From a virus: a stretch of DNA of 56,462 nucleotides. A program made the position numbers and the translations under genes. Shown piece by piece: positions 5,665 to 43,815 of the stretch. Every line of letters starts with the position of its first letter. Position 1 is the stretch's first letter. The stretch lies in IMG/VR virus record IMGVR_UViG_3300021139_000017. The stretch is one strand, 5' to 3'. Under the pieces are notes generated by a model. It searched no databases. It saw only the letters and a program-made list of their open reading frames with translations, and had not been told where the DNA came from.

Positions 5665-5668
5665 AAAG

Positions 5669-6118: not shown

Positions 6119-6142
6119 ATTTGCGTTTTTTTTGGTTGATGA

Positions 6143-7053: not shown

Positions 7054-7054
7054 A

Positions 7055-7378: not shown

Positions 7379-7382
7379 AGAT

Positions 7383-7739: not shown

Positions 7740-9400
7740 TGAATTTGAAGTAGCGCATTGGTTTTCCAAGGCGTAACCGTGAAAAGCCAATTATTCGAGC
7801 AAACAATTTTAACGACCCCAGGAACAGGTATAAAGTTGCTAGCGTTGTAGTTTGTCGCCAGTAAAGTTGTGGTGTTAGTTAATCCGCCACCATTTCCAAA
7901 GAATTGTTCACCGGCAGGTAATTGAAAGCCGTTTGTGGTTAAGGTTGCCACCAGATTGGTGGGAGTGGCCGCTGTGGCAATGAACCATTGCTCGCCGCTG
8001 TTGGTGTTGAAAATGTAGTTGCGCACCCAGCCTGGCGAGCTACCGATCGGCGTGTAAATGTAGCCCACGTCATTCGCATAACCGCCGGCATTGAAGTTGG
8101 TGTAGTTGGCCGAATTGTAATAAAATCCGAAATAATTCTGCACATCCGACGTGCTACCGGGCTGATTCAAATACCAACCCGTCTCGGACGCGCCGTTGGT
8201 GTTCAGGTTTTGAATGACCACCTGGACATAGGTGTTGGTATTCCCAAGAACCGTGAGCGCATTCTGAAAATTGTTGCTGATGGTGTTGAGAGCAATATTA
8301 GTCAGTCCGGCTCCGTTGCCGATGATTATACTGCCAGTGGCAATGACGAGATTTGAATTTATGGTGACGTTGTTCGTCGTAATATTGATTGATCCGAGCG
8401 GAGAATAGCCAAGATTGACGATATCTTGATTCTGGTCAGCTTGGAAAATGGAATTACCGCGCACGTCATTAACCAGCGTCAAACCCGTCCCGCTGAACTC
8501 AAGCGACGGTGGCTGTGCATTAATTCCAAGGATTGCGCCAAAATAGCCCGACACCGTGGAGTGATGGACATACATGACGTTTGTGTCTGCCAGAAAGAAA
8601 TTAGCCTCTGGAAAAATTACGGGTGTGCTATTGGACTGAACCAACCCCAGTGTTGTCGAGTTGGTGAAATAAACATTCGCCGAATAAAGCGCGGTTTGCG
8701 AATACCCTAAATAATCCTGCTCTGCCAGTTGCGTGTAATTCGTCCCAGCGTGCGTCAGCCAGTAGTTACCGCCAATCCAGTTTGTAAATTTGATGTTTTC
8801 ACCAACAAAAAAACCTGCCCCGGCATCATAGACCTGAACCCCAATTTGGTTTGTTATCGTGTAATAAATGTTTGTGACATAAGAGTCTTGGATCGGACCT
8901 GTTGTGGCCGTTATAAAAGAATATGGCGAAGAGACACTTGTTATTAAATTATTGTAGTAAAAAACCCCATTTAAGCCCGTTCCGGCCCAATTCATTGCGG
9001 TGATGCCATTCACCGTATCAGGCAAAGTGCCTGAAGGAATAAAGTAATTGGTTGTGCTGACGCTGTATGGCGTTGCCACAGTTACGGCAAAATTAATTCC
9101 AAGATGCTGATTGGTAAAAATCACCACGCCATTCGTCAATGCTGGATAATTTGCAACATTAAATGTTTTCGAATCACCTGGATACCAAACCCCTCCAACG
9201 ACCACGGATCCTGCCGCCGGCGCCACACTTACCGAGCGCACTAACGCCGGAAAACCTCCGGACAACGATCCGAAATAAAATGCCACATTGTTGCTTTGTG
9301 CGGATGAAATGACCGCGCCGGCCAAGAAGATGGCAAACGCGGAAGTGAATAAGAAGCACGCCTTAAATCGGCGTGATAATGGAAAGCGTCTGGCAGTCAT
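7736..9400 (-). CDS. tail-fibre-like protein (554 aa) with an RR-containing signal-peptide-like N-terminus
   Basis: N-terminus MTARRFPLSRRFKACFLFTSAFAIFLAGAVISSAQS. N/T/S/G-rich beta-type composition. GNGAGLTNI and GNGGGLTN motifs resemble the G-x-G-x-GLTN repeats of phage tail fibres. Confidence 0.6.
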   Translation of the reverse strand: MTARRFPLSRRFKACFLFTSAFAIFLAGAVISSAQSNNVAFYFGSLSGGFPALVRSVSVAPAAGSVVVGGVWYPGDSKTFNVANYPALTNGVVIFTNQHLGINFAVTVATPYSVSTTNYFIPSGTLPDTVNGITAMNWAGTGLNGVFYYNNLITSVSSPYSFITATTGPIQDSYVTNIYYTITNQIGVQVYDAGAGFFVGENIKFTNWIGGNYWLTHAGTNYTQLAEQDYLGYSQTALYSANVYFTNSTTLGLVQSNSTPVIFPEANFFLADTNVMYVHHSTVSGYFGAILGINAQPPSLEFSGTGLTLVNDVRGNSIFQADQNQDIVNLGYSPLGSINITTNNVTINSNLVIATGSIIIGNGAGLTNIALNTISNNFQNALTVLGNTNTYVQVVIQNLNTNGASETGWYLNQPGSTSDVQNYFGFYYNSANYTNFNAGGYANDVGYIYTPIGSSPGWVRNYIFNTNSGEQWFIATAATPTNLVATLTTNGFQLPAGEQFFGNGGGLTNTTTLLATNYNASNFIPVPGVVKIVCSNNWLFTVTPWKTNALLQIQ

Positions 9401-9426
9401 GCTATTAAACTTAAAAAGTCAATCCG

Positions 9427-10638
9427 TCACGGCCCCATCTGTTTCGTGTAAGTCGTAGTCCCGTTCGTCGAGCCGGTCAGGTAGAAAAATCCATTGCTGC
9501 ACCACATGCGGCCCCCCTTCTGATTTCCGAGGTCGGAGATTGTCGGCGTGTTGGTCTGCACCCAAAGGCTGAAAGCGTTGCCGATGGTCAATGGCGCGTA
9601 AAGGTTGGCCGTCGGGATGGCGGCTGTGCGCGGCCAAAAGAACATCTCCGGTTGCGTCGGGTAAATCGGAATGGTGAACGTGACTACACCGGCATTGGTT
9701 GAAATCGTGTAATTCGTGTAGGTCGTCCAGCCGTTCAACAACGACAGGTTTGTGCTGGATGAAATCACAAACGCTGACGGCAAATTTGTCTGCGGAATGG
9801 CCAAGAGCAAATTCGTCCCGGTGCCGTCAAGGCTCAACGAGTTGTAGAGCGTCACCGTCGGAAAGCCGATGTCGAAAGCCGTCCCGCCGAAGTGGCTGAC
9901 GATCTGGTGAAAATAACCGTTTGTGTCCGTGTTGTTTTGCCATTGGCCGGCAACCATGTTCTGCTCGGTCATGTCAACATAGTTTTTCGTCGCGGCATCC
10001 TGTGGCACAATCGGGTCACTGAACTGCGTGAACTGCCCATAGAATCCGTTTGTGCGGTTAATATATTCAGGGTGATCGACCGTCTGAATCACGACCGAGC
10101 CAAGCCCGCCGCCAGCGCCGACGACGGCCAGCGAATAAGTGTTTGTGACATTGACGTAATTCGTCAGCACGAACCACCCGGACGTTCCGTTTGTCGAAGC
10201 CCACACCTGCTCAAACACGTTTGTTGGAAAAGCCACGCCGCCGCCCCCAGCTTGGCCCGGCGAGAAGCTTAATTTCGTCCAACCGTTCGTGAACCGGCCC
10301 ACATAATTCGACGTGCCGAACGCCCAATAGTTTGACGAGAAGATTGTGAACTGCTGACTCGACAAAACGCTGTTGGATAGCGTCAGCACGGAATTGGTTG
10401 ACCCCCCGCCGCTGGATTGCGCCAGATTTGGTGACAGTGGATTCAACATCACCGCCCCGTTGGTATAAATGAAATCCACGGGCGAGAACCACATGTCAAT
10501 CGGATGGCCGTTTGCGTTCAGCACGCCGGGCGGCGTCACCGTCAGCACGGCGGACGGATAGTTCGTCGTGACGTTGAACGATTGCGAGTGCGCCAGCGCC
10601 AGCCAGCCGCACACAATGAGGATGAGGATGTTTTTCAT
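9427..10638 (-). CDS. tail fibre protein (403 aa) with a signal-peptide-like N-terminus
   Basis: ATG at 10638 gives MKNILILIVCGWLALAHSQS. The internal motif DPIVPQDAATKNYVD is the classic tail-fibre (P..DAATK.YVD) motif. Confidence 0.65.
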   Translation of the reverse strand: MKNILILIVCGWLALAHSQSFNVTTNYPSAVLTVTPPGVLNANGHPIDMWFSPVDFIYTNGAVMLNPLSPNLAQSSGGGSTNSVLTLSNSVLSSQQFTIFSSNYWAFGTSNYVGRFTNGWTKLSFSPGQAGGGGVAFPTNVFEQVWASTNGTSGWFVLTNYVNVTNTYSLAVVGAGGGLGSVVIQTVDHPEYINRTNGFYGQFTQFSDPIVPQDAATKNYVDMTEQNMVAGQWQNNTDTNGYFHQIVSHFGGTAFDIGFPTVTLYNSLSLDGTGTNLLLAIPQTNLPSAFVISSSTNLSLLNGWTTYTNYTISTNAGVVTFTIPIYPTQPEMFFWPRTAAIPTANLYAPLTIGNAFSLWVQTNTPTISDLGNQKGGRMWCSNGFFYLTGSTNGTTTYTKQMGP

Positions 10639-10645
10639 AATAGTG

Positions 10646-12979
10646 TCAGTAAAAGGTGACGGAGCCGTAAAACGAGCGGGTCTTGCACGTTTCGCATTCG
10701 CCCTGAATCTCGGTCGAAATCCATTGCGTTGTGTCAGACCAGCCAAATGAAGTGATACAGCGGTTGTTGATGATTTCCGACACGCTGCCATCGGTGTGAA
10801 TTTCCAGACGATTCGGCGGCAACGCGGGCTTTTGGCCGATGGTTGGCGGGATGGTTGGCGGCGGCACAGTGATTTGAATTGGATTGTCATTGAACATCCG
10901 CCGCGCTTGATCCACGGCCTGCCACATGCCGTAACCGTTGGCCAAAGTTTTGCAGACACCATTCAGCGTGAAGGAAATGTAGGGAGGACAATTCGCGGGC
11001 GGCGGCACAGGCGGCGGCGGCGAGTTTGTGCCAGGCGTCGGCGTGTAAGGCGGCGGATTCGTTGCCGGAGCCTCGATGACGTAGGTGAACTGGTAGGAGC
11101 CGGGCGGCGTCCCGTAAATGGCCCCGTTCGGCCCGATATACCACCAACTCGTGTTGGTCGTGGTGAACATCACTTGCGAGTAAGGATTTCCAATTAAACC
11201 GTAGCCAATCCAGTTAGCATTGTTGGAAATTGCAAACCAAGTGTTAGATGGCGGAATCATCGTAACATTGGTTACATAGGGTGAAGCTCCAACACTGCCC
11301 GTCAATGTGATGGTTTCATTCGTCAATGGTAGAATGGTGACATTGTTGGTCAGTGCGTAATAAAACCACCACGCATTCGAGTTGTAGAGTGCCCAGCAAG
11401 TGATGTAGGAATACTGGTTCGTCAACGTGCTGTTGGTGTAAATCAGATAGGCCGTGTCAATCGGCAGAAAAACCGATGAGCGATTGCCGGTCGGATTGGT
11501 GACGATGATGGACGAAACCTGCCAGTTGTAATTCGTGGACATGGCCGCGAGCTTCAACACTTCCCCGCACGCGTTGGTGAATGAACCCAGCCCCCATTGC
11601 GGCGACGGATAAAATGGCCCGCTGTTGTTCGGACACGTCGGCCCACCCATGACGAAGCCGCAAGCGTTGGTGTAAATGAGCGAAAGAAAGTTTGTGCCAT
11701 ACTGGTTGACGACAGGCGGAATGTTCGTGTCGAGGATGTAAGGGCCGGCAATGTTTGTGCAGCCCGGCAGATAAATCGCGTTGCTGTAATTGATGAAGCC
11801 GCACGCATTCGTGTAGGCATTCGCGGCAATGTTCGTGTTCAAATAATACGGCGGTGCCATGTTGGTGCAGCCGGGATTGAACACCTTGTTGGACACGCTC
11901 ACGAAACCACACGCATTCGTGTAGAGGTTGTTCGTCCAAAGCAGATACGGCGGCAGACCGTTCGTGCAAGCCGGATTCGTGCTGGTGAGGATGAAGCCGC
12001 ACGCATTGGTGAACAACCCCGTGCCAAGATTCGTCGCCGCGAAATACGGTGGCCCGGCGTTCGTGCAAATCGTCGGGTAAGGATTCGTGAACGTCGTCAC
12101 CGTCATGTTGCTCGACAGAACGAATCCGCAAGCGTTCGTGTAGAGATTATTCGTCCAGAACCAAAACGGCCCGGCAGAGTTCGTGCAAGTTACCGGGAAA
12201 AAATTCGTGTAGCCCGCAATGCCGTTGGTCAACATCGCCATGCCGTTCGCGTTGGTCACAACACCCGCGCCGATGCCGGGCGCGGCGAAATACGGCCCCG
12301 CCGTGTTCGTGCTCGATGCCGGATTCAGAATCAGCGCGGACTGCCCGCAATCGTTCGTGAAATGAAAACCGTCCACCGAATACCAGCCATCCGGGCAGTT
12401 GGTCGGCGCGGGAAAGCTGATGCCGCCAAGACTGGTGATCGGATAAAACGGATTCGTGCTGGTGAGCGTGAACGTGTTGGAGATCGTCAAGTTGCTGCCG
12501 ACGCCGTTCGTGATGGTCAGATAATTCGTGCCCGCACTTCCACCCGGCCCGCCCACCGTCGCGGCGATGTTTGTCATCAGCGTCAGCAACGTCGAGTTCG
12601 TCGGTGCGTTGGCGCTGACGATTGAGCCGATGGCCGCAGAACCAGCCGAGGAAAATGTGTTCGCTGCCGACAGCCCAATGACGACGCCATTGAGCCAGAA
12701 GTTTGTCAGGCCGGACGGCGGCGGGTTGGTGGCAATCCAGTTGTTGAGCCAAGCCCAGTTGCCATTAATGTCCAACTGCGTTTGGTGCAACGATTCGCCC
12801 ACCGTAACCGAATTGGTCTTGGTGTTCGTCGCCGCGCCGTTGGTGACTACGCCGGGAATGGTGATGCTCGACGTGGTGACATTCGTTGTGGTGTAGATCG
12901 TCGTCGTGTCGAGGTTGGTGAGTTGGGCGCGAGCCGTCATCACCAGCATCAAGAGTGTCAGGATGGATTTTGTTTTCAT
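10646..12979 (-). CDS. fibre-like protein (777 aa) with a signal peptide and about 8 Cys-pair repeats
   Basis: ATG at 12979, 4 nt after the upstream stop, gives MKTKSILTLLMLVMTARAQ. Internal repeats end in (Y/F)TNACGF. A Pro-rich stretch PPPYTPTPGTNSPPPPVPPP lies near the C-terminus. The upstream 115 codons of the track ORF overlap the previous gene and are rejected. Confidence 0.65.
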   Translation of the reverse strand: MKTKSILTLLMLVMTARAQLTNLDTTTIYTTTNVTTSSITIPGVVTNGAATNTKTNSVTVGESLHQTQLDINGNWAWLNNWIATNPPPSGLTNFWLNGVVIGLSAANTFSSAGSAAIGSIVSANAPTNSTLLTLMTNIAATVGGPGGSAGTNYLTITNGVGSNLTISNTFTLTSTNPFYPITSLGGISFPAPTNCPDGWYSVDGFHFTNDCGQSALILNPASSTNTAGPYFAAPGIGAGVVTNANGMAMLTNGIAGYTNFFPVTCTNSAGPFWFWTNNLYTNACGFVLSSNMTVTTFTNPYPTICTNAGPPYFAATNLGTGLFTNACGFILTSTNPACTNGLPPYLLWTNNLYTNACGFVSVSNKVFNPGCTNMAPPYYLNTNIAANAYTNACGFINYSNAIYLPGCTNIAGPYILDTNIPPVVNQYGTNFLSLIYTNACGFVMGGPTCPNNSGPFYPSPQWGLGSFTNACGEVLKLAAMSTNYNWQVSSIIVTNPTGNRSSVFLPIDTAYLIYTNSTLTNQYSYITCWALYNSNAWWFYYALTNNVTILPLTNETITLTGSVGASPYVTNVTMIPPSNTWFAISNNANWIGYGLIGNPYSQVMFTTTNTSWWYIGPNGAIYGTPPGSYQFTYVIEAPATNPPPYTPTPGTNSPPPPVPPPANCPPYISFTLNGVCKTLANGYGMWQAVDQARRMFNDNPIQITVPPPTIPPTIGQKPALPPNRLEIHTDGSVSEIINNRCITSFGWSDTTQWISTEIQGECETCKTRSFYGSVTFY

Positions 12980-12983
12980 AATT

Positions 12984-15695
12984 TTAGGAGCCGTCGGGAA
13001 CGCCGAGCAGCAAGAGCGAGTTTTCCAGATCGTTGAAGATTTCAACGGACATCGGGAATTGAGTTTTGGAAACCACCATTTGCCCCGGATACGACAGGCT
13101 GTTGAATGGATAGTTGGCCAGATGGCGGCTGAAAAAGTTGACGAACGCGCCGCAGTATTCAAACGCCGTCGGACTGTAACCGCCGTTGCCGAAGCCGTAT
13201 TGTTGCGCGTGGAAAAGCGGTTGCCAGTTCGCCAGCACTTCCAGAATGATTTGCGTGTTTGCCTGATAAACGATTTCCGTCCCGGCCAACACCGGCCAGA
13301 ACACCGAGACGTTTCCCGTGTCACGGCCCGCTGCCGGAATGGTAATGGTGAACGGACTCACGCCATCGGCCTTGAAGAATGGTTCAAACACCAGCGAGCC
13401 GTCCCACGCCAGCCGGTTCTGCCCCACGGTGACGACGATGGCCGCGCCGCTGGTTGGCGTTACCATGATTCCGTCCGTGTTCGCCACGGGCAGACGCCGG
13501 GCGCACAGATTGAAAATGCAGTAGCCGTTTTGCGGGATTGGCTTCTGCCCCCCGGTTAGTGCCGTGTAGCCGATGTCCACCCGCGCATTCCCCGTCAGGC
13601 AATTACTGAAAGGCTCATTCGCCAGCGGGAAGTATTGCCGCGCCGGAGCCGCCGAAAAATCCATCTCGACGACGATGGCAAACGACACCGCCACGCCGTT
13701 CGTGTTCTGGATCGTGAATCGGAAATCACCAAGCCCATTGATGATGTTTTGCAGATAGTTCGCGCCGCCCGCGTTCGGAATGACCACGGAGTTACCCGCC
13801 GCAATCACGAAATCGTAAGTCGCCGGGTTCGCCGGATTCGGCCACCCAGCTTTCGTGCTGACAAAGATTTTCAGATTGGATGCCAGCGCGGTGCCCGCGC
13901 TTAACTGGCCATTAACCCAGCCGAGTCCTGGCGTTCCGGGTTGAACCAACGTCAGCTTGATCCCCACGCAAGTAGATGCGGCCACAAAACCGAAGTCCGA
14001 AAACGAATAGTTGTTGGATGCCCCGGCCAAAAGCGTCTGGCTGGCACTGGTGTTGAGGCGCGACTGATAGTTTGAACCGAGATTGAACGGGACAAAATCC
14101 GTATCCCGCAACACCGCCCACGTCGCCGCCTGTGTCTGGCACGACTGATTGATGATGTTGAAATAATGCTCGCCCGAATCGTAAGCCACGCCGCCGATGG
14201 TGAGGTAGTATTCGCCACGGTCGAACAGCGTCATTTGCCGCATCGAGCTTGCTTGAATCGGAAAGAACGCCGGAACTGGATTGTCGAGATAGTCCGGCAA
14301 CAGATTGAACAGACCCGGCGAGCCTGCCACACCGCCGCCGCTGCTACCGTAGCCGCTGACGTATGGCGGAATGTCGTTGTCGAGAAAAACATTCAGCCCC
14401 GGCGTCGGCAACGTCATCGCCACCCAGACGCCTTTGACGGTCGCGTCCGACAACTGCCAGAATGAGCCGTGCGCCGTGCCGTTGAGCGTGAACGCCGCGC
14501 CGACACCCGGCCCCGTGATGGCGTAGCCGTTTGAGCCGGGATGCACCACGTTGACAGGTTTGAACGCCGCCGTGCTGCCAAAGCTCAATGACGAGGTGTA
14601 GGCGGCATAAACTCCCACCAATGGATAGGGATTTGAATTGAGCGTGTAACCCGCCGCTGGATTGGCAGTCAGCGTGATTGTGCCGCTGCCCGGCGCAATG
14701 ACCGTCGTGAAGCTCGCCACCAAAAGAAAGTTGCCCGGTGAAACGGTCTGCGTCGTCCAGACTGGCGCGACTCCGATTGCCGACGGAGTGAACGCCGCCG
14801 CCGCGGGCAATGCCGCGCCCGTGAAGCCCCACGACACTGTAACCGTCCAAGTGCCTTCCGTGTCGGCAACGTAATTCAACGTCGCCGTCTGCGCCACCCC
14901 AGCCGTTGCGCCGGTCAAAAGTTGGCCGCTGGCATTTCTGCCGGCTGAAACCGAGAACCCTGGCTTGGCATCCGCCGCCGCGTAATAAAACTGCACGTTC
15001 TTGAAAACCGTCATGCCGCCGTAATCGCCGAGCAACTGCCCTTGGACGGTCTGCGGGAATGTCACCGGATCGTTGACGCCGACACACCAAGGCCCGCTCA
15101 AAACCGCCGCTGGCGTCAAATACAGCCCGGCATTGATTGGCACACCGGCATTCGCCCCAAAGAGCAGCGTCCAGTAATCGCCCCGGATGCGGTTCAATTC
15201 CTGCCGCCAGTTTTTCAGGTTGAGTTGCACCGAAGCCGTCACCGGCAGGTAAGGCGTCCCGTGCAGAATCGCCGACGTGCAACCGTAGGACTGGATAAAT
15301 TCGCCGCCCGGATTGGCGTCCGCGTTGTTGTAATAAAACGAATTGCCGGATGATGTCGGAAACGTAATGCCCGAACCCGCCGCCGCTTCGTTCGCTCCCG
15401 CCGTCCAGTTGTAAAACCGCTGTGCGAGAACGGCCAGCGTGTAATTGCCGCTGCCGTCATACGTCGCACCGGGCGGAACGAGATTGATGCTCAACGTGCC
15501 GTTGCCGAAGTTATAGGCCGGTTGCGGATAAACCAGCGTCGTCTGGTTGGCGTCAACGAAGTAGTCGAACGACTGCGAAATCGGCCAAGTTCCGGCCCAG
15601 ATAGCCGCATCCACAAGCGGTTTCAAAACCTGATTGGCCAAGGCCGCGAGTCCGGCAAAGTCGTTTTGCGAGATGATGGCTCCGCGCGTTGGCAT
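12984..15695 (-). CDS. large baseplate/central-fibre (Tal-position) structural protein, 903 aa
   Basis: Long ORF in the tail module downstream of the tape measure and the Dit-position gene. No signal peptide. No specific motif recognised. Confidence 0.55.
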   Translation of the reverse strand: MPTRGAIISQNDFAGLAALANQVLKPLVDAAIWAGTWPISQSFDYFVDANQTTLVYPQPAYNFGNGTLSINLVPPGATYDGSGNYTLAVLAQRFYNWTAGANEAAAGSGITFPTSSGNSFYYNNADANPGGEFIQSYGCTSAILHGTPYLPVTASVQLNLKNWRQELNRIRGDYWTLLFGANAGVPINAGLYLTPAAVLSGPWCVGVNDPVTFPQTVQGQLLGDYGGMTVFKNVQFYYAAADAKPGFSVSAGRNASGQLLTGATAGVAQTATLNYVADTEGTWTVTVSWGFTGAALPAAAAFTPSAIGVAPVWTTQTVSPGNFLLVASFTTVIAPGSGTITLTANPAAGYTLNSNPYPLVGVYAAYTSSLSFGSTAAFKPVNVVHPGSNGYAITGPGVGAAFTLNGTAHGSFWQLSDATVKGVWVAMTLPTPGLNVFLDNDIPPYVSGYGSSGGGVAGSPGLFNLLPDYLDNPVPAFFPIQASSMRQMTLFDRGEYYLTIGGVAYDSGEHYFNIINQSCQTQAATWAVLRDTDFVPFNLGSNYQSRLNTSASQTLLAGASNNYSFSDFGFVAASTCVGIKLTLVQPGTPGLGWVNGQLSAGTALASNLKIFVSTKAGWPNPANPATYDFVIAAGNSVVIPNAGGANYLQNIINGLGDFRFTIQNTNGVAVSFAIVVEMDFSAAPARQYFPLANEPFSNCLTGNARVDIGYTALTGGQKPIPQNGYCIFNLCARRLPVANTDGIMVTPTSGAAIVVTVGQNRLAWDGSLVFEPFFKADGVSPFTITIPAAGRDTGNVSVFWPVLAGTEIVYQANTQIILEVLANWQPLFHAQQYGFGNGGYSPTAFEYCGAFVNFFSRHLANYPFNSLSYPGQMVVSKTQFPMSVEIFNDLENSLLLLGVPDGS

Positions 15696-22442: not shown

Positions 22443-22513
22443 ACGGTAACGCTAATCGAACGGTAACGGTAACTGCCACTTTATCGTCATCTGCGCGGTA
22501 ACGGTAACTGCCA
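22443..22513. repeat. iteron-like GGTAAC repeats, including an 18-bp exact direct repeat
   Basis: CGGTAACGGTAACTGCCA occurs at 22461-22478 and again at 22496-22513. ACGGTAAC also occurs at 22443-22450. That gives five GGTAAC hexamers in 71 bp. Confidence 0.8.
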
Positions 22514-22620: not shown

Positions 22621-22649
22621 TTGCCTAGCGCAAGCGCTTGGTTTAAGTT
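22621..22649 (+). promoter_or_regulatory. sigma70-like promoter candidate abutting a start codon
   Basis: TTGCCT - 17 nt - TAAGTT, with the ATG at 22655 only 5 nt after the -10 box. The architecture matches the promoter candidates at 54047-54074 and 55372-55400. Confidence 0.4.
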
Positions 22650-22654
22650 GTGGC

Positions 22655-22831
22655 ATGTCATCTTTAAAACAAAAAAATGCGGCCGCTGTGGCGCTCGGTA
22701 GGTTAGGCGGATCGGCTGGCACTGGTAACGCCAAAGCCAGGACGCCAGAGCAAGCGCGCAAAGCTGGAAAAATTGGTGCGTCTGTGCGATGGGCTAACCA
22801 TGTCAAAAAGACAGAGCCAGCGAAAAAATAA
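22655..22831 (+). CDS. small basic protein (58 aa), a family common in phages/plasmids
   Basis: MSSLKQKNAAAVALGRLGGSAGTGNAKARTPEQARKAGKIGASVRWA resembles the recurrent (A)ALGR.GGKA...K.R..E.ARKAA..RW small-protein pattern. The longer track ORF starts upstream of the promoter candidate. Confidence 0.4.
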   Translation: MSSLKQKNAAAVALGRLGGSAGTGNAKARTPEQARKAGKIGASVRWANHVKKTEPAKK

Positions 22832-22980
22832 ACCAGCGTTTTTCAAATTCTGCTAGAATCACCTTGTTTTCATTGGCGAAAATAATTTTATTTTTTTGTT
22901 GTATGGCGCAAGCGGTTGCGTTATATTCTTACCAGTTCAAACGAACTAACCGAAACAGCCCGGCAAAATTGGCTGAAAAA

Positions 22981-23877
22981 ATGAAAGACCGAAATATGTA
23001 TTCCTTCACACACACAATGAACAGCCGCATTAACCGTTTTGGCGCATCCGCGCGTGCGCTTCGTTCCAACTCGCCTTTGACCGATGAACAAATCCGCAAC
23101 GTGGCGCCATCCGTTTTCGCGGACGCGGCGCACAGTTCGCGCTCGGCTCGTTATTCTACCATCCCCACCAGCGAAGTTTTGACCAGCTTGCGCCGTGAAG
23201 GGTTTCAACCCTTTGCCGTGACGCAAGGCGGATCGCGCGATGAAGAAAAGCGCGGTTTTACCAAGCACATGCTCCGCTTGCGCCACGAATCGAACATGGC
23301 CGCGCAAGTGGGCGACTCGTTTCAAGAAATTGTTTTGGTCAATTCGCATGATGGCACGTCGAGTTATCAACTCATGGCCGGCATGTTCCGGCTTGTTTGC
23401 TCAAATGGTATGGTGGCGGGCACGGGCAATGGCTTTGATGAAGTCCGCATCAAACATCAGGGCAATGTTATTCCAGCCGTGATTGATGGCTGCATTGAGA
23501 TTTTAGGACGCTTGCCGGCGGTATCGGGTGAAGTGGAAAATTTCAACCGGCTTCAGCTTACCCAGGGTGAGCAAAACGCTTTTGCGGCTGCCGCGCTGGC
23601 TGTGCGTTACGATGAACAGACCGCGCCATTTGAAGCGGCGAAACTTTTAACCGTGCATCGTCGGGATGATGCCGCGCCCACCCTTTGGAACACCTTAAAC
23701 ACCGTGCAAGAAAATGTGATTCGCGGCGGGGTGGGTTACGTTTTGCGGGATGAACAGGGCCGGCGAAAACAATATCGCCGCACGCGCGAAGTCGCTGGAA
23801 TTGACCAAAACGTGAAACTGAATCGCGGCTTGTGGGTTCTGGCGCAAGAAATGGCCAAACTGAAGGGAGCGAACTAA
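22981..23877 (+). CDS. DUF932 (DUF945-like) family protein
   Basis: NSRINRFG...PLTDEQIRNVAPSVFADAAHSSRSARYSTIPTSEVLTSLRREGFQPFAVTQ...FTKHMLRLRH...LVNSHDGTSSYQLMAGMFRLVCSNGMV is a close match to the family pattern seen on ICEs, prophages and plasmids. The start is uncertain: ATGs lie at 22981, 22996 and 23017, and the track start is TTG. Confidence 0.75.
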   Translation: MKDRNMYSFTHTMNSRINRFGASARALRSNSPLTDEQIRNVAPSVFADAAHSSRSARYSTIPTSEVLTSLRREGFQPFAVTQGGSRDEEKRGFTKHMLRLRHESNMAAQVGDSFQEIVLVNSHDGTSSYQLMAGMFRLVCSNGMVAGTGNGFDEVRIKHQGNVIPAVIDGCIEILGRLPAVSGEVENFNRLQLTQGEQNAFAAAALAVRYDEQTAPFEAAKLLTVHRRDDAAPTLWNTLNTVQENVIRGGVGYVLRDEQGRRKQYRRTREVAGIDQNVKLNRGLWVLAQEMAKLKGAN

Positions 23878-23988
23878 ACCGCGCAGTTATTCGCGGTCTT
23901 GGCTTGTCATGCCAGCGAGCCAAGCACGCGGAAAACACCGCAACCCAAACGGCGGGGAAATTACGCCGAATTTAAACAAACTGAAAAC

Positions 23989-26316
23989 ATGAAAACATTG
24001 ATTGCAATTAACAAAAATTCACGCGCGGCGATTAAATTTGCGGCGCTCGGCGTCAAACGGTCTAACCTGCCGATTTTGGGTAACGTCCATCTTTACGCGA
24101 ACGGATCACTTGAAATGGTTGGGACTGATTTAGACGTTTTTACGGTTTCACGCTGCGCGTGCGCTTCCGAAATCGACGGCAAAGTGACATTTCCGGCCGC
24201 AGCTTTGAAAGATGTCGCGGCGATTAAAGCCGATGGCAATATTTCGCTTTCGGCAGATGCTAAAAGCATCGTCACCATTTCGGCCAATGGTAACGAGCGA
24301 AAAATTTACGGCTTGCCCGCTACAGATTTTCCAGCCCTGCCCGAACTTGGGGAAAAGATTTACACCGCTTCATTTCCTGCCGCGAAATTCATTTCGGCTT
24401 TAAAATCTGTTTCGCTGGCGATGTCCACAGACGCAAGCCGATATGTTCTGAATGGCGTTTGTGTTGAGATTAGCGCGGATAACGTGCGCTTGGTTGCCAC
24501 CGATGGCCGCCGGCTGCAATTTGTGGACATTGCACGGGGGGAATCAGATGCGGAAATGATGGCCGCAATCTCTGCCGCGAAAACTGAATTTTCAATTGCC
24601 CAACTGGCGCGGGATGCGGCGCAAACGGTTTTGGCCGAAACAGAAAAGCAATTTCCAGCCAAGCCAATTGAAATTGAACACCGTCGCGGCCGCAAATCTT
24701 CACGGTTTGAAGATTCAGAGCAAACCAAGCTGGCGCGGGAAAACTATGCGCAAGCTTGCCAAAAGCTATCTGAAGCCAGCCAGGCGCTGTCAGCTATTGA
24801 ACATGGGGAATCGTTTATCATCCCCGCCAAAGCCGTCAGCCTGATTCAAAAATTCCCGCTAGATAAAAAGGCGGATCAGACAATCAAAATTGAACTTTGG
24901 CAGGAACTTAAAGGCGTTGCGGCCGGATCGCGCTTCACGCTGGGGGAATTTTCCATCTATTCGCGGCTGGTCGAGGGGAATTTTCCGAACTGCCGCCAAG
25001 TCATTCCGGGGGATTGCAAGGAGCGGATCACTGTGCTGGCCAAAGAGTTTCAAGCCGTTTTGGAAGCCGCTGAAAAAGGAACATCTGAAAAACATAACGC
25101 TGTCGGCTTGTTTTTTGATAAAAATGGTTTGACCGTCAAAGCCAATGCGCCTGAGATTGGGGAAACGGTTGTCAAAATGCCGGGCAATTTCGCGCTGCAA
25201 AATCCGTTTTGCATCTCGTTTAATCCGCGCTATTTAATTGAAGCTTGCCAATCCTTCGCGGTGAATCATGCGGAAATGGTTTTGGAATTTGTGGATGAAC
25301 TTTCACCCGTCAAAATTCTTTCGACCGATGGCGCGCTTCAAGTTGTCATTATGCCAATGCGGATGGCTGGATCATCGCCGGTTACTGTCACGGATGAAGT
25401 TGCGCCAAGCAATGAAGAAAAGGCAAAGGCTGTTTGCGCCGAAATAAAAGGCGAAACTGCCACAGAACAAAAGCCGGTGATTTTGAATTGCGTGGCGAAC
25501 AACCAGCCAGAGCCAGTCGTTGCCGTGCCGGCCGTGCCCATTGCGGAGCCGGTCGCGGTTGCCGCTGTGGAAACACCTTGCCCGATAGAATACGACGCCA
25601 CAATCAACACCGCTAAGTTTATCGGGCATTGCCAAGCCGGCGAACGCTATAATAATTCCATCATCACAGGCAATTTTAACCGCAAAAAAAAGGCAATTGA
25701 ATTTGCGGCCGATAACGGGGGGAAAATCGCCGGATATTTGCACGGCAAATATGTTCGCGGTTGGGTTGTATCCGTGCCGATTGAAAAGCCGGCTGAATCG
25801 GTCGCGGCGAAATTGGAAAACGTCAAACCCTTATCACCAGAATTGCCAGAGCCGGAGACGCCGTTTGAAGTAACTACCCAGCCCGACGTGCGCGTGACGG
25901 TCGCGGGGGGAATTGTCACCCATTACGAGGTTTTAAGTCGTGCGGGGGGAATTTATTCGCGGGGAATCATCCTGATTGGCACCAAGATTGAAGCGTTGCG
26001 CGCGGTATTTGAGGATTTGACGTTTGAAGTTATCCAGGCGGAACCGATGAAGATTGAAACCACCTTTGCCGAATCGCCAGCCGAGGCGGTGGTTATCAAG
26101 CAAGCCGCGCCTTTGGTCATGGCCATTCGCCGCGACGAACGCGGGCAAATCATTAACGGCAATTTTCCCATGCGTGAAGCATCTGGTCCGGTGAAGTTGC
26201 CGCCAATCCCGCCGCGCAAAGGTGGCGCACTGGCAACCATGCTCGAGGCGGGGGAAAAATTGGCCGCTCTGATGATGACTAAACCTGTGCCGGCATTCAT
26301 CGGCGCGGAAATCTGA
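23989..26316 (+). CDS. DNA polymerase III beta sliding-clamp (DnaN) homologue with an internal insertion and a long C-terminal extension (775 aa)
   Basis: ATG at 23989. Clamp hallmarks appear in order: NLPILGNVHL, RLVATDGRRL, EGNFPNCRQVIP, ISFNPRYLIEACQ and VIMPMRM. An ~85-aa helical insert follows RLVATDGRRLQFVDIA. About 310 further residues follow the clamp end. Confidence 0.75.
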   Translation: MKTLIAINKNSRAAIKFAALGVKRSNLPILGNVHLYANGSLEMVGTDLDVFTVSRCACASEIDGKVTFPAAALKDVAAIKADGNISLSADAKSIVTISANGNERKIYGLPATDFPALPELGEKIYTASFPAAKFISALKSVSLAMSTDASRYVLNGVCVEISADNVRLVATDGRRLQFVDIARGESDAEMMAAISAAKTEFSIAQLARDAAQTVLAETEKQFPAKPIEIEHRRGRKSSRFEDSEQTKLARENYAQACQKLSEASQALSAIEHGESFIIPAKAVSLIQKFPLDKKADQTIKIELWQELKGVAAGSRFTLGEFSIYSRLVEGNFPNCRQVIPGDCKERITVLAKEFQAVLEAAEKGTSEKHNAVGLFFDKNGLTVKANAPEIGETVVKMPGNFALQNPFCISFNPRYLIEACQSFAVNHAEMVLEFVDELSPVKILSTDGALQVVIMPMRMAGSSPVTVTDEVAPSNEEKAKAVCAEIKGETATEQKPVILNCVANNQPEPVVAVPAVPIAEPVAVAAVETPCPIEYDATINTAKFIGHCQAGERYNNSIITGNFNRKKKAIEFAADNGGKIAGYLHGKYVRGWVVSVPIEKPAESVAAKLENVKPLSPELPEPETPFEVTTQPDVRVTVAGGIVTHYEVLSRAGGIYSRGIILIGTKIEALRAVFEDLTFEVIQAEPMKIETTFAESPAEAVVIKQAAPLVMAIRRDERGQIINGNFPMREASGPVKLPPIPPRKGGALATMLEAGEKLAALMMTKPVPAFIGAEI

Positions 26317-26345
26317 AACCGACGAAACTTTAACCACTGCTTTTT

Positions 26346-26795
26346 ATGACTACTGAAATTTTCGGAAAACCGATTTTTACTTATAGCCGCGCCCAGGCGA
26401 TTGAAGATGGTTTTTTGGTGGATATTTCCAAGGCTGTCACGCCCTGCCCGTTCAAATACCCGGTGGCAATGACGCGCACAGCCTATGAATCCACCCTTGG
26501 CGCCGGTGGCTTTTGGGATGAAAAACCGGATGGCACGGCGGATTTGATTCTGCCCGGCGGTCAGGATTGCTCGGGCCGCGCTTGGGACGTTTTCCAAATG
26601 CTGCTGGCTACCATGCGTAACCCGCGACTTGATCCGCTGCAAATGCGGAACAGTGACAACACGCGCGTTTATTTCAGCGTGTTGATTGATACGCACGACA
26701 ACGGGCGCAAAACGCGCGTAGAATTGAAAAGCATATGCGGACCGGGCGACGATGCGGCGCCGGTCATCACCATTCTTTTGCGGGGGGAAGATTAA
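26346..26795 (+). CDS. ICE/plasmid-associated hypothetical protein (recalled as DUF6573-like, unverified)
   Basis: N-terminal YSRAQAIEDGFLVDIS and C-terminal GPGDDAAPVITILLRGED match a pattern I associate with conjugative-element proteins. Confidence 0.5.
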   Translation: MTTEIFGKPIFTYSRAQAIEDGFLVDISKAVTPCPFKYPVAMTRTAYESTLGAGGFWDEKPDGTADLILPGGQDCSGRAWDVFQMLLATMRNPRLDPLQMRNSDNTRVYFSVLIDTHDNGRKTRVELKSICGPGDDAAPVITILLRGED

Positions 26796-26817
26796 CCAAT
26801 AAAATGAAAGAAATTCT

Positions 26818-27123
26818 ATGAATAAAACACCACATACTCCCGGACCTTGGAAATCAGAAGATGCAAAAACACCACATGGTCGGCCGGTAATACAAAAGGA
26901 AATCGTCGCTGGCATTCGACACATTGCCGATGTCCGGCTTTACGAGGACGCGGATTTAGCCAATGCGCGATTGATTGCCGCCGCGCCAGAATTGCTTTCC
27001 GCTCTTGAAACAATTGTTCGCAAATCATATCTGCGACCGGGAAAGCATGAGGATTGCCAGATTCACCCCGCATTGATTGCTGACGCCCGTGCCGCCATCG
27101 CCAAAGCGAAAGGAAATCTGTGA
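26818..27123 (+). CDS. conserved phage hypothetical protein (101 aa)
   Basis: TPGPW near the N-terminus and ANARLIAAAPELLSALE form a recurrent small phage-protein motif. Confidence 0.5.
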   Translation: MNKTPHTPGPWKSEDAKTPHGRPVIQKEIVAGIRHIADVRLYEDADLANARLIAAAPELLSALETIVRKSYLRPGKHEDCQIHPALIADARAAIAKAKGNL

Positions 27124-27283
27124 AAACATTAAAAACTTTTCGTTGTCTTTTCATGTTTGGAAATGCTCAATGCGCAGATGAATCAGTTCAATGTGATTCC
27201 AAGACTGCCGCCGAAAAATGGGGACGCCAAACAGCCAAGCAACGAGGATGGCGCTTTTTGGAAGCTCGCCAGGGGGAGGCCGC

Positions 27284-28207
27284 ATGAAATCCATAACCCT
27301 ATTTTATCGCAATCTAGCCGAGAATGCCGACAAGGTTTATCAAGCCGAGATCGTCCCTAGCGCGGGGGGATTTGAAGTCGTTTGCCGATATGGCAAGCGG
27401 GGGGCAAAGCTGTCCTACGTTACCAAGACACGCCAGCCAGTGCCATTGGATGAAGCGCAAAAGATTTTCACTGGGCTTATCCGTGAGAAAACCGCGAAGG
27501 GTTACACCGATGACGCGGGGGGAATCCCTTTTAACGGGGACACGGTGAAACTTGGGGAAATTTTACCCCATCCCCGCAAAACACTTGTGACGTTAGCCGA
27601 GGCGCGCGAGTGGTCAACGTCTCAATTCCTCATTCAGCGCAAGCTGGACGGCAGCTTGGCTCGTCGGGAAGTCGCGGGGGCTGTCTTGCTTGGGGAACTG
27701 GTCACGGCGCGCTCTGGCGCGTTCCTGACGCCGGCTGATAGGGCTTTAATCGCCAAGCATGGCTCGTTTTTTGCCGCCTTTACCGTCGAATCGGTGCATG
27801 GGGAAAAAATGCTCACCAAATCCACGCGGGAACGCTGGGGGATCCTATGCAGTTTCGCTCCATACTTCCCGGCGGATGTCGTCCTGGTTGAATCCGCAAC
27901 CGTGCCGGACATGCTGACGGGGGAAGAAGGCTACGTCGCGCACAAATGGTCGGATGGCTGGGGGGAAATGTTATGCCACAAAGCCGAGGACATTTTCACC
28001 TGCCGCGTGACCGCTACGGGAGGGACGCAAGCCGCGCAAATCTGCGATGCCGCCACCGGCCAGGCACGCGGGGCTTGCAAGTTCGGCGGTGGAGCCATTG
28101 ATCGCGTGCGGATTGGATCGGTCGTGCGGATCGCTGGCATGGGGCTTACCGACGCGGGGAAAATCAGACAGCCAACCTTGTGCCGGGAATGGCTGGTTAA
28201 ATTCTAA
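27284..28207 (+). CDS. WGR domain fused to a minimal ATP-dependent DNA ligase
   Basis: GGGGGAGG Shine-Dalgarno site before the ATG at 27284. The N-terminus (FYRNLAENADKVYQAEIV...VVCRYGKRGAKL...GLIREKTAKGY) is WGR-like. This is followed by ligase motif I (QRKLDGS), motif IV-like EGYVAHK and an OB-like C-terminus. Confidence 0.7.
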   Translation: MKSITLFYRNLAENADKVYQAEIVPSAGGFEVVCRYGKRGAKLSYVTKTRQPVPLDEAQKIFTGLIREKTAKGYTDDAGGIPFNGDTVKLGEILPHPRKTLVTLAEAREWSTSQFLIQRKLDGSLARREVAGAVLLGELVTARSGAFLTPADRALIAKHGSFFAAFTVESVHGEKMLTKSTRERWGILCSFAPYFPADVVLVESATVPDMLTGEEGYVAHKWSDGWGEMLCHKAEDIFTCRVTATGGTQAAQICDAATGQARGACKFGGGAIDRVRIGSVVRIAGMGLTDAGKIRQPTLCREWLVKF

Positions 28208-28211
28208 AATT

Positions 28212-28430
28212 ATGAATCCAAACGATACAAGGGTGCTTTACGCTCTAAAAACGGATTTGGCAGCTTCACTACGCCTGCGTCAGACATCTTTTCGATGCTG
28301 CGGCTTGAATGAACTTGATTCTGCCACGCGCTCGCCGTCGGAATTTTTCTGGCGCGAATATGCGGCAGTCGAGCAGTTCATCGCCGAAAACTTTTGCGGT
28401 TGCGATAAGACGTTTAACCCGCAAATTTGA
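28212..28430 (+). CDS. hypothetical 72-aa protein
   Basis: ATG at 28212, 4 nt after the ligase stop. Cys-containing; no motif recognised. Confidence 0.4.
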   Translation: MNPNDTRVLYALKTDLAASLRLRQTSFRCCGLNELDSATRSPSEFFWREYAAVEQFIAENFCGCDKTFNPQI

Positions 28431-28503
28431 ACCACCTATTGAAACTGACTCGACTAAAACCCGGTAAAATGTCCAGACTCAGCCGCAAGAAAAAATCCAC
28501 TAT

Positions 28504-28728
28504 ATGAAAACTGCCAACCAAGTCCGCGAATATGTCCGTCGCCGGTCCTTGATCGAGCGGGGAAAATATGTAGCCAGCCAAGTCGCGTTTTATCCCGACC
28601 AAGCGCATCCTGATTTGCGGCCAATCCTGGCGCGTGAACGGGAATTGCTGTTAATCGAAATTTTGAACGCTTTCGACACGCCTCATAAAACCAAGTTGAA
28701 AATACCGAAGGGGAAAATCCATGAATGA
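28504..28728 (+). CDS. hypothetical 74-aa protein
   Basis: ATG-started ORF. Overlaps the next ORF by 8 nt. Confidence 0.4.
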   Translation: MKTANQVREYVRRRSLIERGKYVASQVAFYPDQAHPDLRPILARERELLLIEILNAFDTPHKTKLKIPKGKIHE

Positions 28729-29056
28729 CAAGCCTGCCGCGCGTGGGGAACCTTTCCCGCAACATTACGCCCTTAAATGGCCGGAGCCAATCCCGCTTTG
28801 GAAGTGGGCCGCGCGTAACTCCCGCCGCGCCGATGGCAAGCCGCTGGCGATGGTGGATTTTTTCAAGCGGTCGGTGCGCGGGGATGACAGGAAGCCGGGG
28901 GAAACCCATGAATCATTTGTGCGCCGGTCGCTCTTTGAAGCCTTGCGCGAACTGGTGATTAGTCGGCAGCGTGCGGGGGGAACTGTGCCCGAGTGGGTGT
29001 CGGAACATCTTGCCAACGAAATCGCCCAAGGTGAAAATTCAAGGCGTGTGTCGTGA
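28721..29056 (+). CDS. hypothetical 111-aa protein
   Basis: ATG preceded by GAAGGGGAAAA. Last gene of the plus-strand island. Confidence 0.4.
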   Translation: MNDKPAARGEPFPQHYALKWPEPIPLWKWAARNSRRADGKPLAMVDFFKRSVRGDDRKPGETHESFVRRSLFEALRELVISRQRAGGTVPEWVSEHLANEIAQGENSRRVS

Positions 29057-29158
29057 CTGATTCGTGTAAACATGGCAGTCCTGCAACCACGCAACATCAG
29101 TCCTAAAGAGCCACACGCTACCCTTCATTAGACTTGCGGACTCTGGCCAAAACAAAAA

Positions 29159-29188
29159 CCTCTGCCGTGAAACCAAACACGGCAGAGG
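29159..29188. terminator. bidirectional hairpin between convergent operons
   Basis: A perfect 11-bp inverted repeat, CCTCTGCCGTG (29159-29169) / CACGGCAGAGG (29178-29188), with an 8-nt loop. It lies between the plus-strand island end (29056) and the head-operon end (29219). Confidence 0.65.
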
Positions 29189-29218
29189 CCAATGAAACCG
29201 CCCAACTCCAAACCAAAT

Positions 29219-42898: not shown

Positions 42899-43075
42899 TT
42901 ATATTTCGACTGGTTTTAATTCCACCTTCCAAGCTTTAATCACAAATACCACCCGTTGATTGATTTTTTTTAGTTTCAATCGGTATTTGCCTTTTCGAAT
43001 GCGCGAATGAATTGAATTAGCCGCCAATCCTTGTCGCATTCCTTCCTCAATACAAAATTCTTTTAAGGTTTTCAT
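42899..43075 (-). CDS. 58-aa DNA-binding-like small protein (below the ORF-track cutoff)
   Basis: Hand translation gives MKTLKEFCIEEGMRQGLAANSIHSRIRKGKYRLKLKKINQRVVFVIKAWKVELKPVEI. It has an ATGA overlap with the upstream gene, and its stop abuts the next ATG. It resembles the excisionase/HTH-type S.(Q/H)..(Y/R)(R/K)IR.GK pattern. Confidence 0.4.
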   Translation of the reverse strand: MKTLKEFCIEEGMRQGLAANSIHSRIRKGKYRLKLKKINQRVVFVIKAWKVELKPVEI

Positions 43076-43815
43076 TTAAACTCTTTCCAGATTTGTTCAG
43101 CGTATTGCGCCGGAGTTGTTTTGATTCTCTGTTCTTTGATTGCTGATTCTACTTCAGAAATGGTTCGAACACATTTGCCATGATTTTCCTTCAACCGATT
43201 TACCCACTTCCCGGCATCATTCACCCATTGATCCGCCAGCGCTGCTTCAAATCTGGCCGCTGTTTCCCGTTCAATCATCGCCAAAGCTTTTTTGCCCTTT
43301 GTTGTAAGCTTAGACTTAGTTGTAGTTGTAATTGTAAGGGATTTGCGTGACGCGGCGCTTACGTCTTCCCTCACGCTTGGCGTCACGTCAACCGATTCGG
43401 CAGGCGTCACGGCAGGCGTCACGGCAGGCGTCACGGTGAACGTCACGCATCCCGTCACGCTATCTGGTTCTGAAAGAAACAGCTTTGCTCTTTTGTTGGC
43501 ATCTGCTGTGCGGTTATACTGCAAGGCGTATTCGCGTTTCGACTCATTTAGCGTTTTTACGGTGCCTTCGTGAAGAAAATAGGCACCTTTAATTTTCCAA
43601 CCCTTCGACATCAATTCTATTTTCACCTTGGGCCACGCCTTGGAAGTGCAACTTGAAAGCTCTCTCAGGGTAAAATCATCATTGAGCGGCGGACCATCAT
43701 TTAAAATAGTCATGTCGAACAACTGACGGTGAGCCAGCTTTCCAGAGTTGGTCATCCCAAAAGTGTCAATCATCATCAGATTGGGCTTGTATTTGACAAA
43801 ATGCAGATCGTTCAT
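43072..43815 (-). CDS. replication-module protein, DUF1376-like N-terminus (tentative)
   Basis: The N-terminal ~100 aa loosely fit the DUF1376 pattern. A central (VTPA)n linker is encoded by phased CGTCACG repeats. Sits in the position of a replication initiator. Confidence 0.4.
   Translation of the reverse strand: MNDLHFVKYKPNLMMIDTFGMTNSGKLAHRQLFDMTILNDGPPLNDDFTLRELSSCTSKAWPKVKIELMSKGWKIKGAYFLHEGTVKTLNESKREYALQYNRTADANKRAKLFLSEPDSVTGCVTFTVTPAVTPAVTPAESVDVTPSVREDVSAASRKSLTITTTTKSKLTTKGKKALAMIERETAARFEAALADQWVNDAGKWVNRLKENHGKCVRTISEVESAIKEQRIKTTPAQYAEQIWKEFK
43381..43459. repeat. phased CGTCACG repeats (12-bp register) inside the replication-module gene
   Basis: CGTCACG starts at 43381, 43405, 43417, 43429, 43441 and 43453. 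An inverted copy (CGTGACG) lies at 43346. Confidence 0.85.

Follow-up and report, generated by a model that had tools for sequence, protein, structure and literature searches.

Morons of lambdoid phages have reportedly been described by Hendrix and colleagues, the hot spots of P2-like phages carry variable systems, and anti-CRISPR loci sit inside the head-gene regions of Mu-like Pseudomonas phages. In IncF-type plasmids, DUF932 is among the commonest uncharacterised genes adjoining oriT. Polyvalent-protein domains, including solo LPDs that adjoin phage structural genes too, have been proposed to act early in invasion (Iyer et al. 2017, PMC5512222). The locus analyzed here is a 6.5-kb opposite-strand island of the viral record IMGVR_UViG_3300021139_000017, a metagenomic contig of 56,462 bp (the whole contig is referred to below as the window). 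This contig seems to represent a family of uncultivated lambda-like phages with a GpA-type terminase and a fusion of protease and major capsid protein (MCP). With a probability of roughly 0.6, the island represents the local form of an old accessory operon, fixed in position between the head and tail modules and variable in content.

The head genes of the window are located on the minus strand, from position 38282 down to 29219, and encode a GpA-type large terminase (TerL), a lambda-type portal, the protease-MCP fusion and two small head proteins. The tail operon lies beyond the island, also on the minus strand (22281 down to 7383), and a further minus-strand early/recombination region encodes ERF, a PDDEXK nuclease, RusA, an HNH protein, a C5-methyltransferase and an AAA_23 protein. 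The head and tail operons are separated by a contiguous plus-strand block (22655–29056) of ten open reading frames (ORFs). This is the strand layout given in a preliminary description of this DNA, whose named members of the block (DUF932, a DnaN clamp, DUF6573 and a WGR-ligase) were all borne out by family, profile or fold matches. Its count of ten genes is correct for the ORFs, nine of which are backed by homologues in other contigs or by a family match, but the 55-amino-acid (aa) ORF matched no family and nothing in the loci of relatives, and it may not be a gene. The features of the island and its borders are listed below (nt, nucleotides), with revised starts for the 58-aa, DUF932, clamp, ligase and 72-aa genes.

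22443–22513, plus strand: cluster of short repeats in the intergenic region from which the tail operon (leftward) and the island (rightward) diverge
22621–22649, plus strand: promoter-like element P1; TTGCCT, a 17-nt spacer with GCGCAAGCGCTTGG, TAAGTT
22655–22831, plus strand: 58-aa basic protein (MSSLKQKNAAAVALGRLGG...ARKAGKIGASVRW); 74% identical in L056, 51% in L001
22899–22927, plus strand: promoter-like element P2, upstream of DUF932; TTGTAT, the 17-nt spacer GGCGCAAGCGGTTGCGT, TATATT
22996–23877, plus strand: DUF932 protein; Pfam E 8.8e-47, phrog_12094 E 2e-88
23989–26316, plus strand: beta sliding clamp (DnaN) fusion of 775 aa, equal to P0264, with three clamp domains
26346–26795, plus strand: DUF6573 protein of 149 aa; Pfam E 2.2e-16, 82% identical in L056
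26818–27123, plus strand: 101-aa protein of phrog_1273; PHROG E 1.9e-18
27120–27287, plus strand: 55-aa ORF, unsupported
27284–28207, plus strand: 307-aa protein with a WGR domain and a predicted minimal ATP-dependent DNA ligase; WGR E 6e-8, catalytic Lys in KLDG
28212–28430, plus strand: 72-aa protein; 43% identical to the product of the gene that follows the L004 ligase
28504–28728, plus strand: 74-aa protein; 46% identical to the ligase-adjoining gene in L018
28721–29056, plus strand: 111-aa protein, the last island gene; 51% identical in L022, 57% in L056
29150–29190, minus strand: intrinsic terminator of the head operon; perfect 11-bp stem (29160–29190), 8-nt loop, TTTTTGTTTT

Contigs of relatives were supplied by MCP homologues 34–82% identical to that of the window. 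Since greedy longest-ORF calling was noisy, the presence of the block was scored from tblastn hits and the supplied gene calls. This analysis revealed that at least 13 distinct capsid-defined relatives carry, at the same head–tail junction, an opposite-strand block encoding a ligase-core homologue; counterparts of the 226-aa and 130-aa head genes precede it, and a counterpart of the 285-aa tail gene follows. The carriers are L001, L004, the P0002 contig (via P0042), the P0054 contig, L005, L011/L012, L016, L018, L022, L028, L033, L041, L055 and L059. The last of these, a 13-kb contig and the only one obtained from a narrower MCP scan, is binned as Patescibacteria; it probably represents a phage placed in the wrong bin, and the host was assigned without it. 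Locus L039 was left out, since its weak ligase hit (25% identity) is encoded on the MCP strand.

In at least four relatives (L006–L008, which are one phage, and L025, L027 and L030) no block was found and the head and tail genes are nearly contiguous. Head and tail genes are 0.4 kb apart in L025, L027 and L030. In L006–L008 and in L017, both lacking a ligase at this site, the gap measures 1.9 kb and 2.4 kb, respectively, as compared with 2.9 to more than 8.9 kb (L022) in the relatives with a ligase block. A 145-aa ORF that distinguished L006 from L007 was rejected as a gene-calling artefact, the DNA being identical. The comparison with relatives proposed in the preliminary description thus revealed that the island is variable: its presence, the length of the gap (0.4 to more than 8.9 kb) and the cargo all differ. 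The slot itself seems to be old, since an opposite-strand ligase block fills the same junction in relatives down to 34–42% MCP identity.

Within the blocks, the ligase gene is constantly found about 0–1.7 kb from the head-proximal end, and the variable cargo is tail-proximal. Pfam analysis of the blocks of ten relatives (77 ORFs) identified the ligase, helix-turn-helix (HTH) regulators (in L001 and L005), DnaN, MT-A70 and other methyltransferases, QueC, DUF2201 with an AAA ATPase, DUF3560 and a NikA-like protein. In L004 and in the P0054 contig, the ligase gene is immediately preceded by that for DnaN, and the block of L022 encodes a true polyvalent protein of 1142 aa (LPD29, methyltransferase and DUF4942). 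The homologues of the last island gene in L022 and L056 are both located at the head-proximal end of their blocks. This arrangement is consistent with a semi-conserved, head-proximal core, which would consist of the minimal ATP-dependent ligase and small genes, and a tail-proximal part that may serve as exchangeable cargo.

Comparative analysis further revealed that blocks have been exchanged. The MCP of L004, the closest structural relative, is 80–82% identical to that of the window, yet its DnaN and ligase are only 39% and 50% identical, and its block lacks DUF932 and DUF6573. In locus L056 the MCP is of the P22-coat type and the S49 protease is encoded separately, and tblastn gave no hits there to the head genes of the window. 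The locus nevertheless shares the gene order of the island, with identities of 74% (58-aa protein), 86% (DUF932), 82% (DUF6573), 60% (WGR-ligase) and 57% (last gene), and encodes a 699-aa protein that matches the clamp fusion (54%) in the C-terminal domain only; at the nucleotide level, L056 and the window are 79% identical over 1.4 kb and 75% over 1.0 kb. In L054, which has a GP7/S49-type head, a 65% identical WGR-ligase gene again converges on the head genes. The pairwise identities of MCP and ligase are only moderately correlated (Pearson 0.60, Spearman 0.33). Since the version of the window recurs in the same order beside the unrelated head module of L056, the module moves between phages. 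The earlier proposal of a laterally acquired establishment, repair or anti-restriction module therefore stands as regards exchange (60–86% aa identity with L056) and the plasmid type of the cargo, but not as a recent foreign insertion.

A gene 80% identical to the DUF932 gene of the window was also detected at the edge of a Mu-like prophage (L057, positions 1–10873), which encodes Mu Gam, a 725-aa transposase-like protein and an HTH repressor and is flanked by cellular genes in a metagenome-assembled genome (MAG) of Verrucomicrobiae. DUF932 therefore circulates as an accessory gene in at least three phage types. Relatives of this protein that are 74–82% identical are annotated from Verrucomicrobiota/Verrucomicrobiae MAGs, and the L002 dihydroorotase groups, at 90% identity, in a cluster that bears the name Verrucomicrobiota, which is probably also the phylum of the host.

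L002 (positions 10001–14155) is part of a Verrucomicrobiota chromosomal contig and encodes a 704-aa MCP, the N-terminal part of which is 81% and the capsid part 34% identical to that of the window; a gene homologous to that for the 563-aa tail protein comes immediately after it. It may be a chimeric or decayed prophage.

The promoter-like elements P1 and P2 have the general form TTGnaT, a 17-nt spacer containing GCGCAAGCGGTTGC, and TAnnTT, with an internal palindrome CGCAA/TTGCG (CGCAA GCGG TTGCG) in the spacer. Scanning for the exact core GCGCAAGCGGTTGC gave one site in the window, two in L056 and no site in the 58 other loci scanned. The homologues of P1 and P2 in L056, a phage with an unrelated head, are placed at positions 246–275 and 523–552. 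The two elements probably represent a cassette-specific, promoter/operator-like start of island transcription. The start of the 58-aa gene was assigned to position 22655, because conservation begins at this ATG and not at the start of the longer ORF (22532); since P1 ends 6 nt upstream of the conserved ATG, the mRNA of this gene may be leaderless.

The repeat cluster preceding P1 contains two exact copies of the 16-mer GGTAACGGTAACTGCC (positions 22462 and 22497, 35 nt apart; 0.12 expected by chance) and one degenerate copy, and no further copy was found elsewhere in the window. It is a candidate regulator-binding site. The repeats noted in the preliminary description as an iteron region do exist, although this term is generous for two to three copies.

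At the other border of the island, the perfect 11-bp stem described previously was confirmed, but it is followed by a T-run on the minus strand only, and the hairpin is therefore the terminator of the head operon and not bidirectional. Equivalent hairpins with a T-run follow the last head gene in L004, L022, L055 and L056. The terminator marks the convergent junction of head operon and island, and it is the sole strong terminator, serving the strand opposite to the island. As for translation signals, the view that several island genes have strong GGAGG-type Shine-Dalgarno sites unlike those of the phage was not upheld: GGAGG was identified only at the ligase start (ATG at 27284, GGAGG at −4), and the remaining island leaders are A-rich and, like those of the genome as a whole, lack a Shine-Dalgarno sequence. 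An Rfam scan of the 21.0–30.5 kb region detected no RNA families.

The ligase part of the WGR protein was not recognized by Pfam in the window sequence, and a PDB search with the whole protein sequence gave nothing useful. A profile of the family, however, matched only ATP-dependent DNA ligases in the PDB, and residues K120, D122 and G123 of the K-x-D-G motif are invariant in 65 homologues. The best Foldseek match of the AlphaFold model (predicted local distance difference test score, pLDDT, 91.9) was LigE (6gdr; E 1.7e-9, probability 1.00), and LigD and the ligases of Chlorella virus and African swine fever virus were also found. Judged by the KxDG motif and the modelled nucleotidyltransferase and oligonucleotide-binding (OB) folds, the protein is an ATP-dependent DNA ligase, for which nick sealing is predicted. 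Metagenomes and large cellular contigs commonly encode ~350-aa proteins that combine WGR with PF01068, while among the phage loci the WGR fusion is confined to some members (the window, L022, L054 and L056). A match of the WGR domain (27284–27550) to the PADLOC model WGR_XIII, a retron type XIII-associated WGR protein (E 4.5e-19), was also recorded.

The clamp fusion contains the DnaN domains PF00712, PF02767 and PF02768 in this order, all above the cut-off, and is supported by TIGR00663 (E 8.6e-51; 173 bits, cut-off 137.65) and by beta clamps of the PDB (E 2.9e-31). Alignment with the latter revealed that about 85 residues are inserted into clamp domain II (24625–24880, residues ~213–296 of the 805-aa ORF). 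The clamp domains are followed by a linker of low complexity, then by a ~60-aa sub-domain and, at the C-terminus, by a rare domain. Only 16 representatives of the C-terminal extension were found among 1.84 billion proteins, and one of these, P0266, is another DnaN fusion with the same C-terminus. The ~60-aa sub-domain also occurs within giant polyvalent proteins of 2942 and 4515 aa; P0275 and P0276 carry LPD38/SNF2 and LPD5/LPD1. In the window proteins themselves no Pfam LPD domain was detected. The C-terminal domain is encoded alone in L022 (399 aa; positions 9906–11105) and joined to a non-clamp N-terminus without a Pfam match in L056 (699 aa; 1597–3696), which looks like in-place domain swapping at the same cassette position. 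The clamp of L004 is likewise oversized (465 aa).

The start of the DUF932 gene was placed at about 22996, an ATG conserved with L056 (alternatives at 22981 and 23017). The AlphaFold2 model of the protein is confident (pLDDT 84.6; predicted template modelling score 0.80), but the best Foldseek match in the PDB reached an E value of only 0.35, so that the fold has no solved counterpart there; viral models returned only DUF932/DUF945 proteins, and a PDB sequence search gave nothing useful. The literature on DUF932 and DUF6573 is nearly empty.

The DUF6573 protein ends with ...GPGDDAAPVITILLRGED, and its residues 4–25 (26355–26420; FGKPIFTYSRAQAIEDGFLV) resemble a conserved motif of the R subunits of type I restriction enzymes (HsdR), as judged by matches to PRK11448 (E 1.2e-5), PDB entry 3h1t (residues 351–372, 14 of 22 positions identical) and the PADLOC model REase_I (E 7e-4). 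This similarity could reflect mimicry or shared ancestry. As regards the smallest proteins, the 58-aa protein matched nothing in Pfam, PHROG or PDB; it is a possible regulator of the cassette.

The occurrence of both DUF families was determined in 72,556 plasmid and 50,697 phage records. DUF932 is present in at least 5000 of the plasmid records (87% of them conjugative) as compared with 27 phage records, mostly of jumbo phages, and DUF6573 in 219 plasmid and no phage records. In the IncF plasmid pRHB34-C05_2, the gene order is DUF3560, methyltransferase, ssb, DUF905, ParB-like, psiB, psiA, hok/sok, DUF932, SLT and traM; this site of DUF932 is a classical leading region. In pBCJ2315, genes for an LPD29 protein and a methyltransferase come after DUF932. 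Relatives of DUF932 were also found in 266 IMG/VR viral contigs. Of these, 80 were fetched, and in several of them DUF6573, a phrog_1273 relative or DnaN lies directly 3' of DUF932 (phrog_1273 relatives in five IMG/VR loci). The plasmid counts and the IncF leading-region position bear out the earlier statement that the recognisable cargo is of the conjugative-element type.

The island diverges from the tail operon, converges on the head operon and would act as a separate transcription unit, probably transcribed from P1/P2. Recombination swaps whole versions of the block, even across phages with unrelated heads. A plausible function is that of an establishment operon serving phage DNA on entry into the cell or during replication. 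The WGR-ligase could seal nicks or cohesive ends, and the phage clamp may recruit the polymerase and repair partners of the host, given that scans of about 40 window proteins gave no polymerase, helicase or primase of the phage itself. DUF932 and DUF6573 might counter host defences, a role that methyltransferases, QueC, LPD29 and DUF3560 could fulfil in relatives.

Several points weigh against this interpretation. P1 and P2 were missed by a consensus promoter scan, and their assignment comes from conservation and a weak sigma-70 resemblance; expression of the block, including an early or independent timing from these elements, is deduced from the sequence. Genes were called only crudely in the IMG/VR loci, where a missing ligase hit was the main criterion for absence of the block, and its ancestral presence was read from distribution rather than from a rooted tree. 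Among the island proteins there is no match to any characterised anti-defence protein, the PADLOC hits being domain-level only, and DUF932 has neither a solved structural relative nor a known activity. The clamp and ligase could be plain replication accessories. Finally, if packaging follows the lambda-type order, the earliest DNA to enter the cell would not include the island; the resemblance to plasmid leading regions is therefore one of gene content and not of geometry.

Other explanations of the island were weighed against the accessory operon. The preliminary description suggested that an integrative and conjugative element, plasmid or satellite remnant had recently inserted and split the late operon. 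Plasmid-type families are indeed carried, and the block interrupts head and tail genes that are contiguous in L006–L008, L025, L027 and L030. However, the comparison of k-mer, GC and codon usage that it proposed showed that the island matches the rest of the genome. The tetranucleotide distance has a z value of 0.69 (17 of 100 equal-size windows at least as deviant), the GC content is 52.4% versus 51.5%, and the correlation of relative synonymous codon usage between the island and the other genes (r 0.925) compares with 0.938 ± 0.022 for equal-size contiguous blocks, 7 of 35 of which are lower. A foreign origin by composition was therefore dropped, as were att-like boundaries, since no flanking direct repeats link 22.2–22.9 kb with 29.0–29.3 kb. 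Scans with Pfam, PHROGs, NCBIfam and PADLOC identified no integrase or recombinase, relaxase or replication initiator in the ten ORFs, and the block carries no Rep or capsid-hijack genes. Given the native composition, codons and leaders, the lack of direct repeats and of integrase, relaxase and initiator genes, and the homologous ligase block at the same junction down to 34–42% MCP identity, a recent foreign insertion is largely refuted. A maintenance module for an episomal, phage-plasmid lifestyle is similarly very improbable. The ends of the contig overlap by 54 nt, no integrase was found among the window proteins scanned, and L058 has a ParB-type gene close to that of a DUF932 relative, but the island and the about 40 window proteins scanned include no ParA/ParB, Rep or resolution system. 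Moreover, the overlap falls within a 12-nt repeat array, and a permuted or cos-joined virion genome would give the same pattern.

The block might instead be an ordinary replication and repair module, in which the uncharacterised proteins help replication and have no role against host defence. DnaN and ligase are bona fide replication and repair proteins and adjoin each other in L004 and the P0054 contig, phage clamps are known (e.g., in Rhizobium phage 16-3), and the native composition agrees with this explanation. We nevertheless consider it unlikely: no initiator, helicase, primase or polymerase accompanies them among the window proteins scanned, the other cargo of relatives is of the DNA-modification and polyvalent-protein type, DUF932 and DUF6573 are overwhelmingly plasmid families, and at least four relatives manage without the block. 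A moron-like cluster, expressed from the prophage and aiding the lysogen by superinfection exclusion or defence, is hardly more credible. It would account for the opposite orientation in the late region, the probable own promoter and the nearby terminator, the presence/absence polymorphism and the HTH regulators in L001 and L005, and a preprint speculates that plasmid DUF932 alters phage susceptibility. On the other hand, PADLOC found no known defence system, the content is one of DNA metabolism and modification, the composition is not foreign, unlike that of many morons, and lysogeny itself is unproven, no integrase having been found among the window proteins scanned. A more far-reaching proposal, which we put forward tentatively and regard as possible rather than probable, is that phages and conjugative plasmids share one portable establishment toolkit, here slotted mid-morphogenesis and traded as a unit among unrelated phages. 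DUF932 would act together with the clamp and a nick-sensing ligase on incoming DNA, and DUF6573 would act against type I restriction via its HsdR-like motif. The link made in this proposal is supported by the recurring DUF932-DnaN, DUF932-DUF6573 and DUF932-phrog_1273 adjacencies.

Some further features of the window were recorded. A 12-nt tandem array, CCAAGTCAGCGA, is present at both ends (1–157, 13 copies; 56325–56462, 11.5 copies), and the first 54 nt recur as the last 54 nt. Because this overlap sits within the array, circularity of the contig is probable rather than proven. Joining of the ends gives a repeat array of about 20 copies, a candidate origin, packaging site or assembly break point. 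A second opposite-strand accessory block (209–4121, plus strand, and 4606–5457, minus strand) converges on the end of the tail/lysis region and encodes DUF6745, HNH/endonuclease VII-like, DUF5131, PAPS-reductase-domain and DUF1643 proteins; a gene for a patatin-like phospholipase adjoins it. A divergent pair of genes at the start of the early region (52987–53703; 90 aa on the minus and 147 aa on the plus strand) resembles an immunity switch, and a PDB sequence search with the 147-aa candidate repressor (53260) gave no useful match. A tRNA-Arg (CCG) gene is located within the early region (51421–51510, minus strand), and a 12/24-nt tandem repeat, CGGCAGGCGTCA (3.2 copies, 43379–43447), lies inside a 247-aa ORF (43072–43815). 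No near-identical DNA was found in GenBank phages or IMG/VR, and single-protein IMG/VR scans with the MCP and with the clamp fusion gave no matches.

The locus provides a well-bounded case of a variable slot within a phage structural gene cluster whose cargo overlaps that of plasmid leading regions, as well as a clean example of whole-module exchange across phages with unrelated capsids. DUF932 is encoded by thousands of clinically important conjugative plasmids, without an assigned function and with a fold not represented in the PDB, and its linkage to the clamp, the ligase, DUF6573 and DNA-modification genes narrows the hypotheses.

Among the described systems, the leading-region anti-defence islands of plasmids (Samuel et al. 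2024, PMC11541004) have the common families DUF932 and DUF6573 in the window, and share DUF3560, orphan methyltransferases and LPD29 with the blocks of relatives. In contrast to plasmid leading regions, the island is located in a phage, has head and tail genes as its neighbours, and lacks oriT, relaxase and tra genes and single-stranded DNA promoters; the characterised anti-defence genes of leading-region islands (ArdA, KlcA, PsiB, Acr) are not found in it. The polyvalent proteins (PMC5512222) have counterparts in the LPD29 protein of L022 and in the sub-domain shared by the clamp fusion and LPD-bearing giants, but a DnaN clamp joined to such domains is not described there (the term "sliding clamp" is not mentioned). 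Compared with phage-encoded beta clamps such as p081 of Rhizobium phage 16-3, the window protein has the same three-domain DnaN fold (about 30% identity), and differs in the ~85-aa insertion in domain II and the rare 285-aa C-terminal extension. The ligase resembles minimal ligases (LigE, the LigD ligase domain, Chlorella virus) in its KxDG motif and nucleotidyltransferase plus OB fold, whereas its core is too divergent for recognition by Pfam.

With morons and accessory hot spots, the island has in common a fixed position among conserved structural genes and polymorphism of presence and content. It also has two promoter-like elements, which probably provide a promoter of its own, and is flanked by a terminator, which serves the opposite strand. 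It differs from morons in being large (6.5 kb, nine to ten genes), in its opposite strand and its division of head from tail genes, in its semi-conserved ligase anchor and non-foreign composition, and in a cargo of DNA metabolism and modification genes in place of known defence or anti-CRISPR genes. The island thus combines known ideas, the moron or accessory hot spot and mosaic module exchange, and introduces no new principle; what distinguishes it is the opposite strand, the split between head and tail, the ligase anchor, the leading-region cargo and the unusual clamp fusion.

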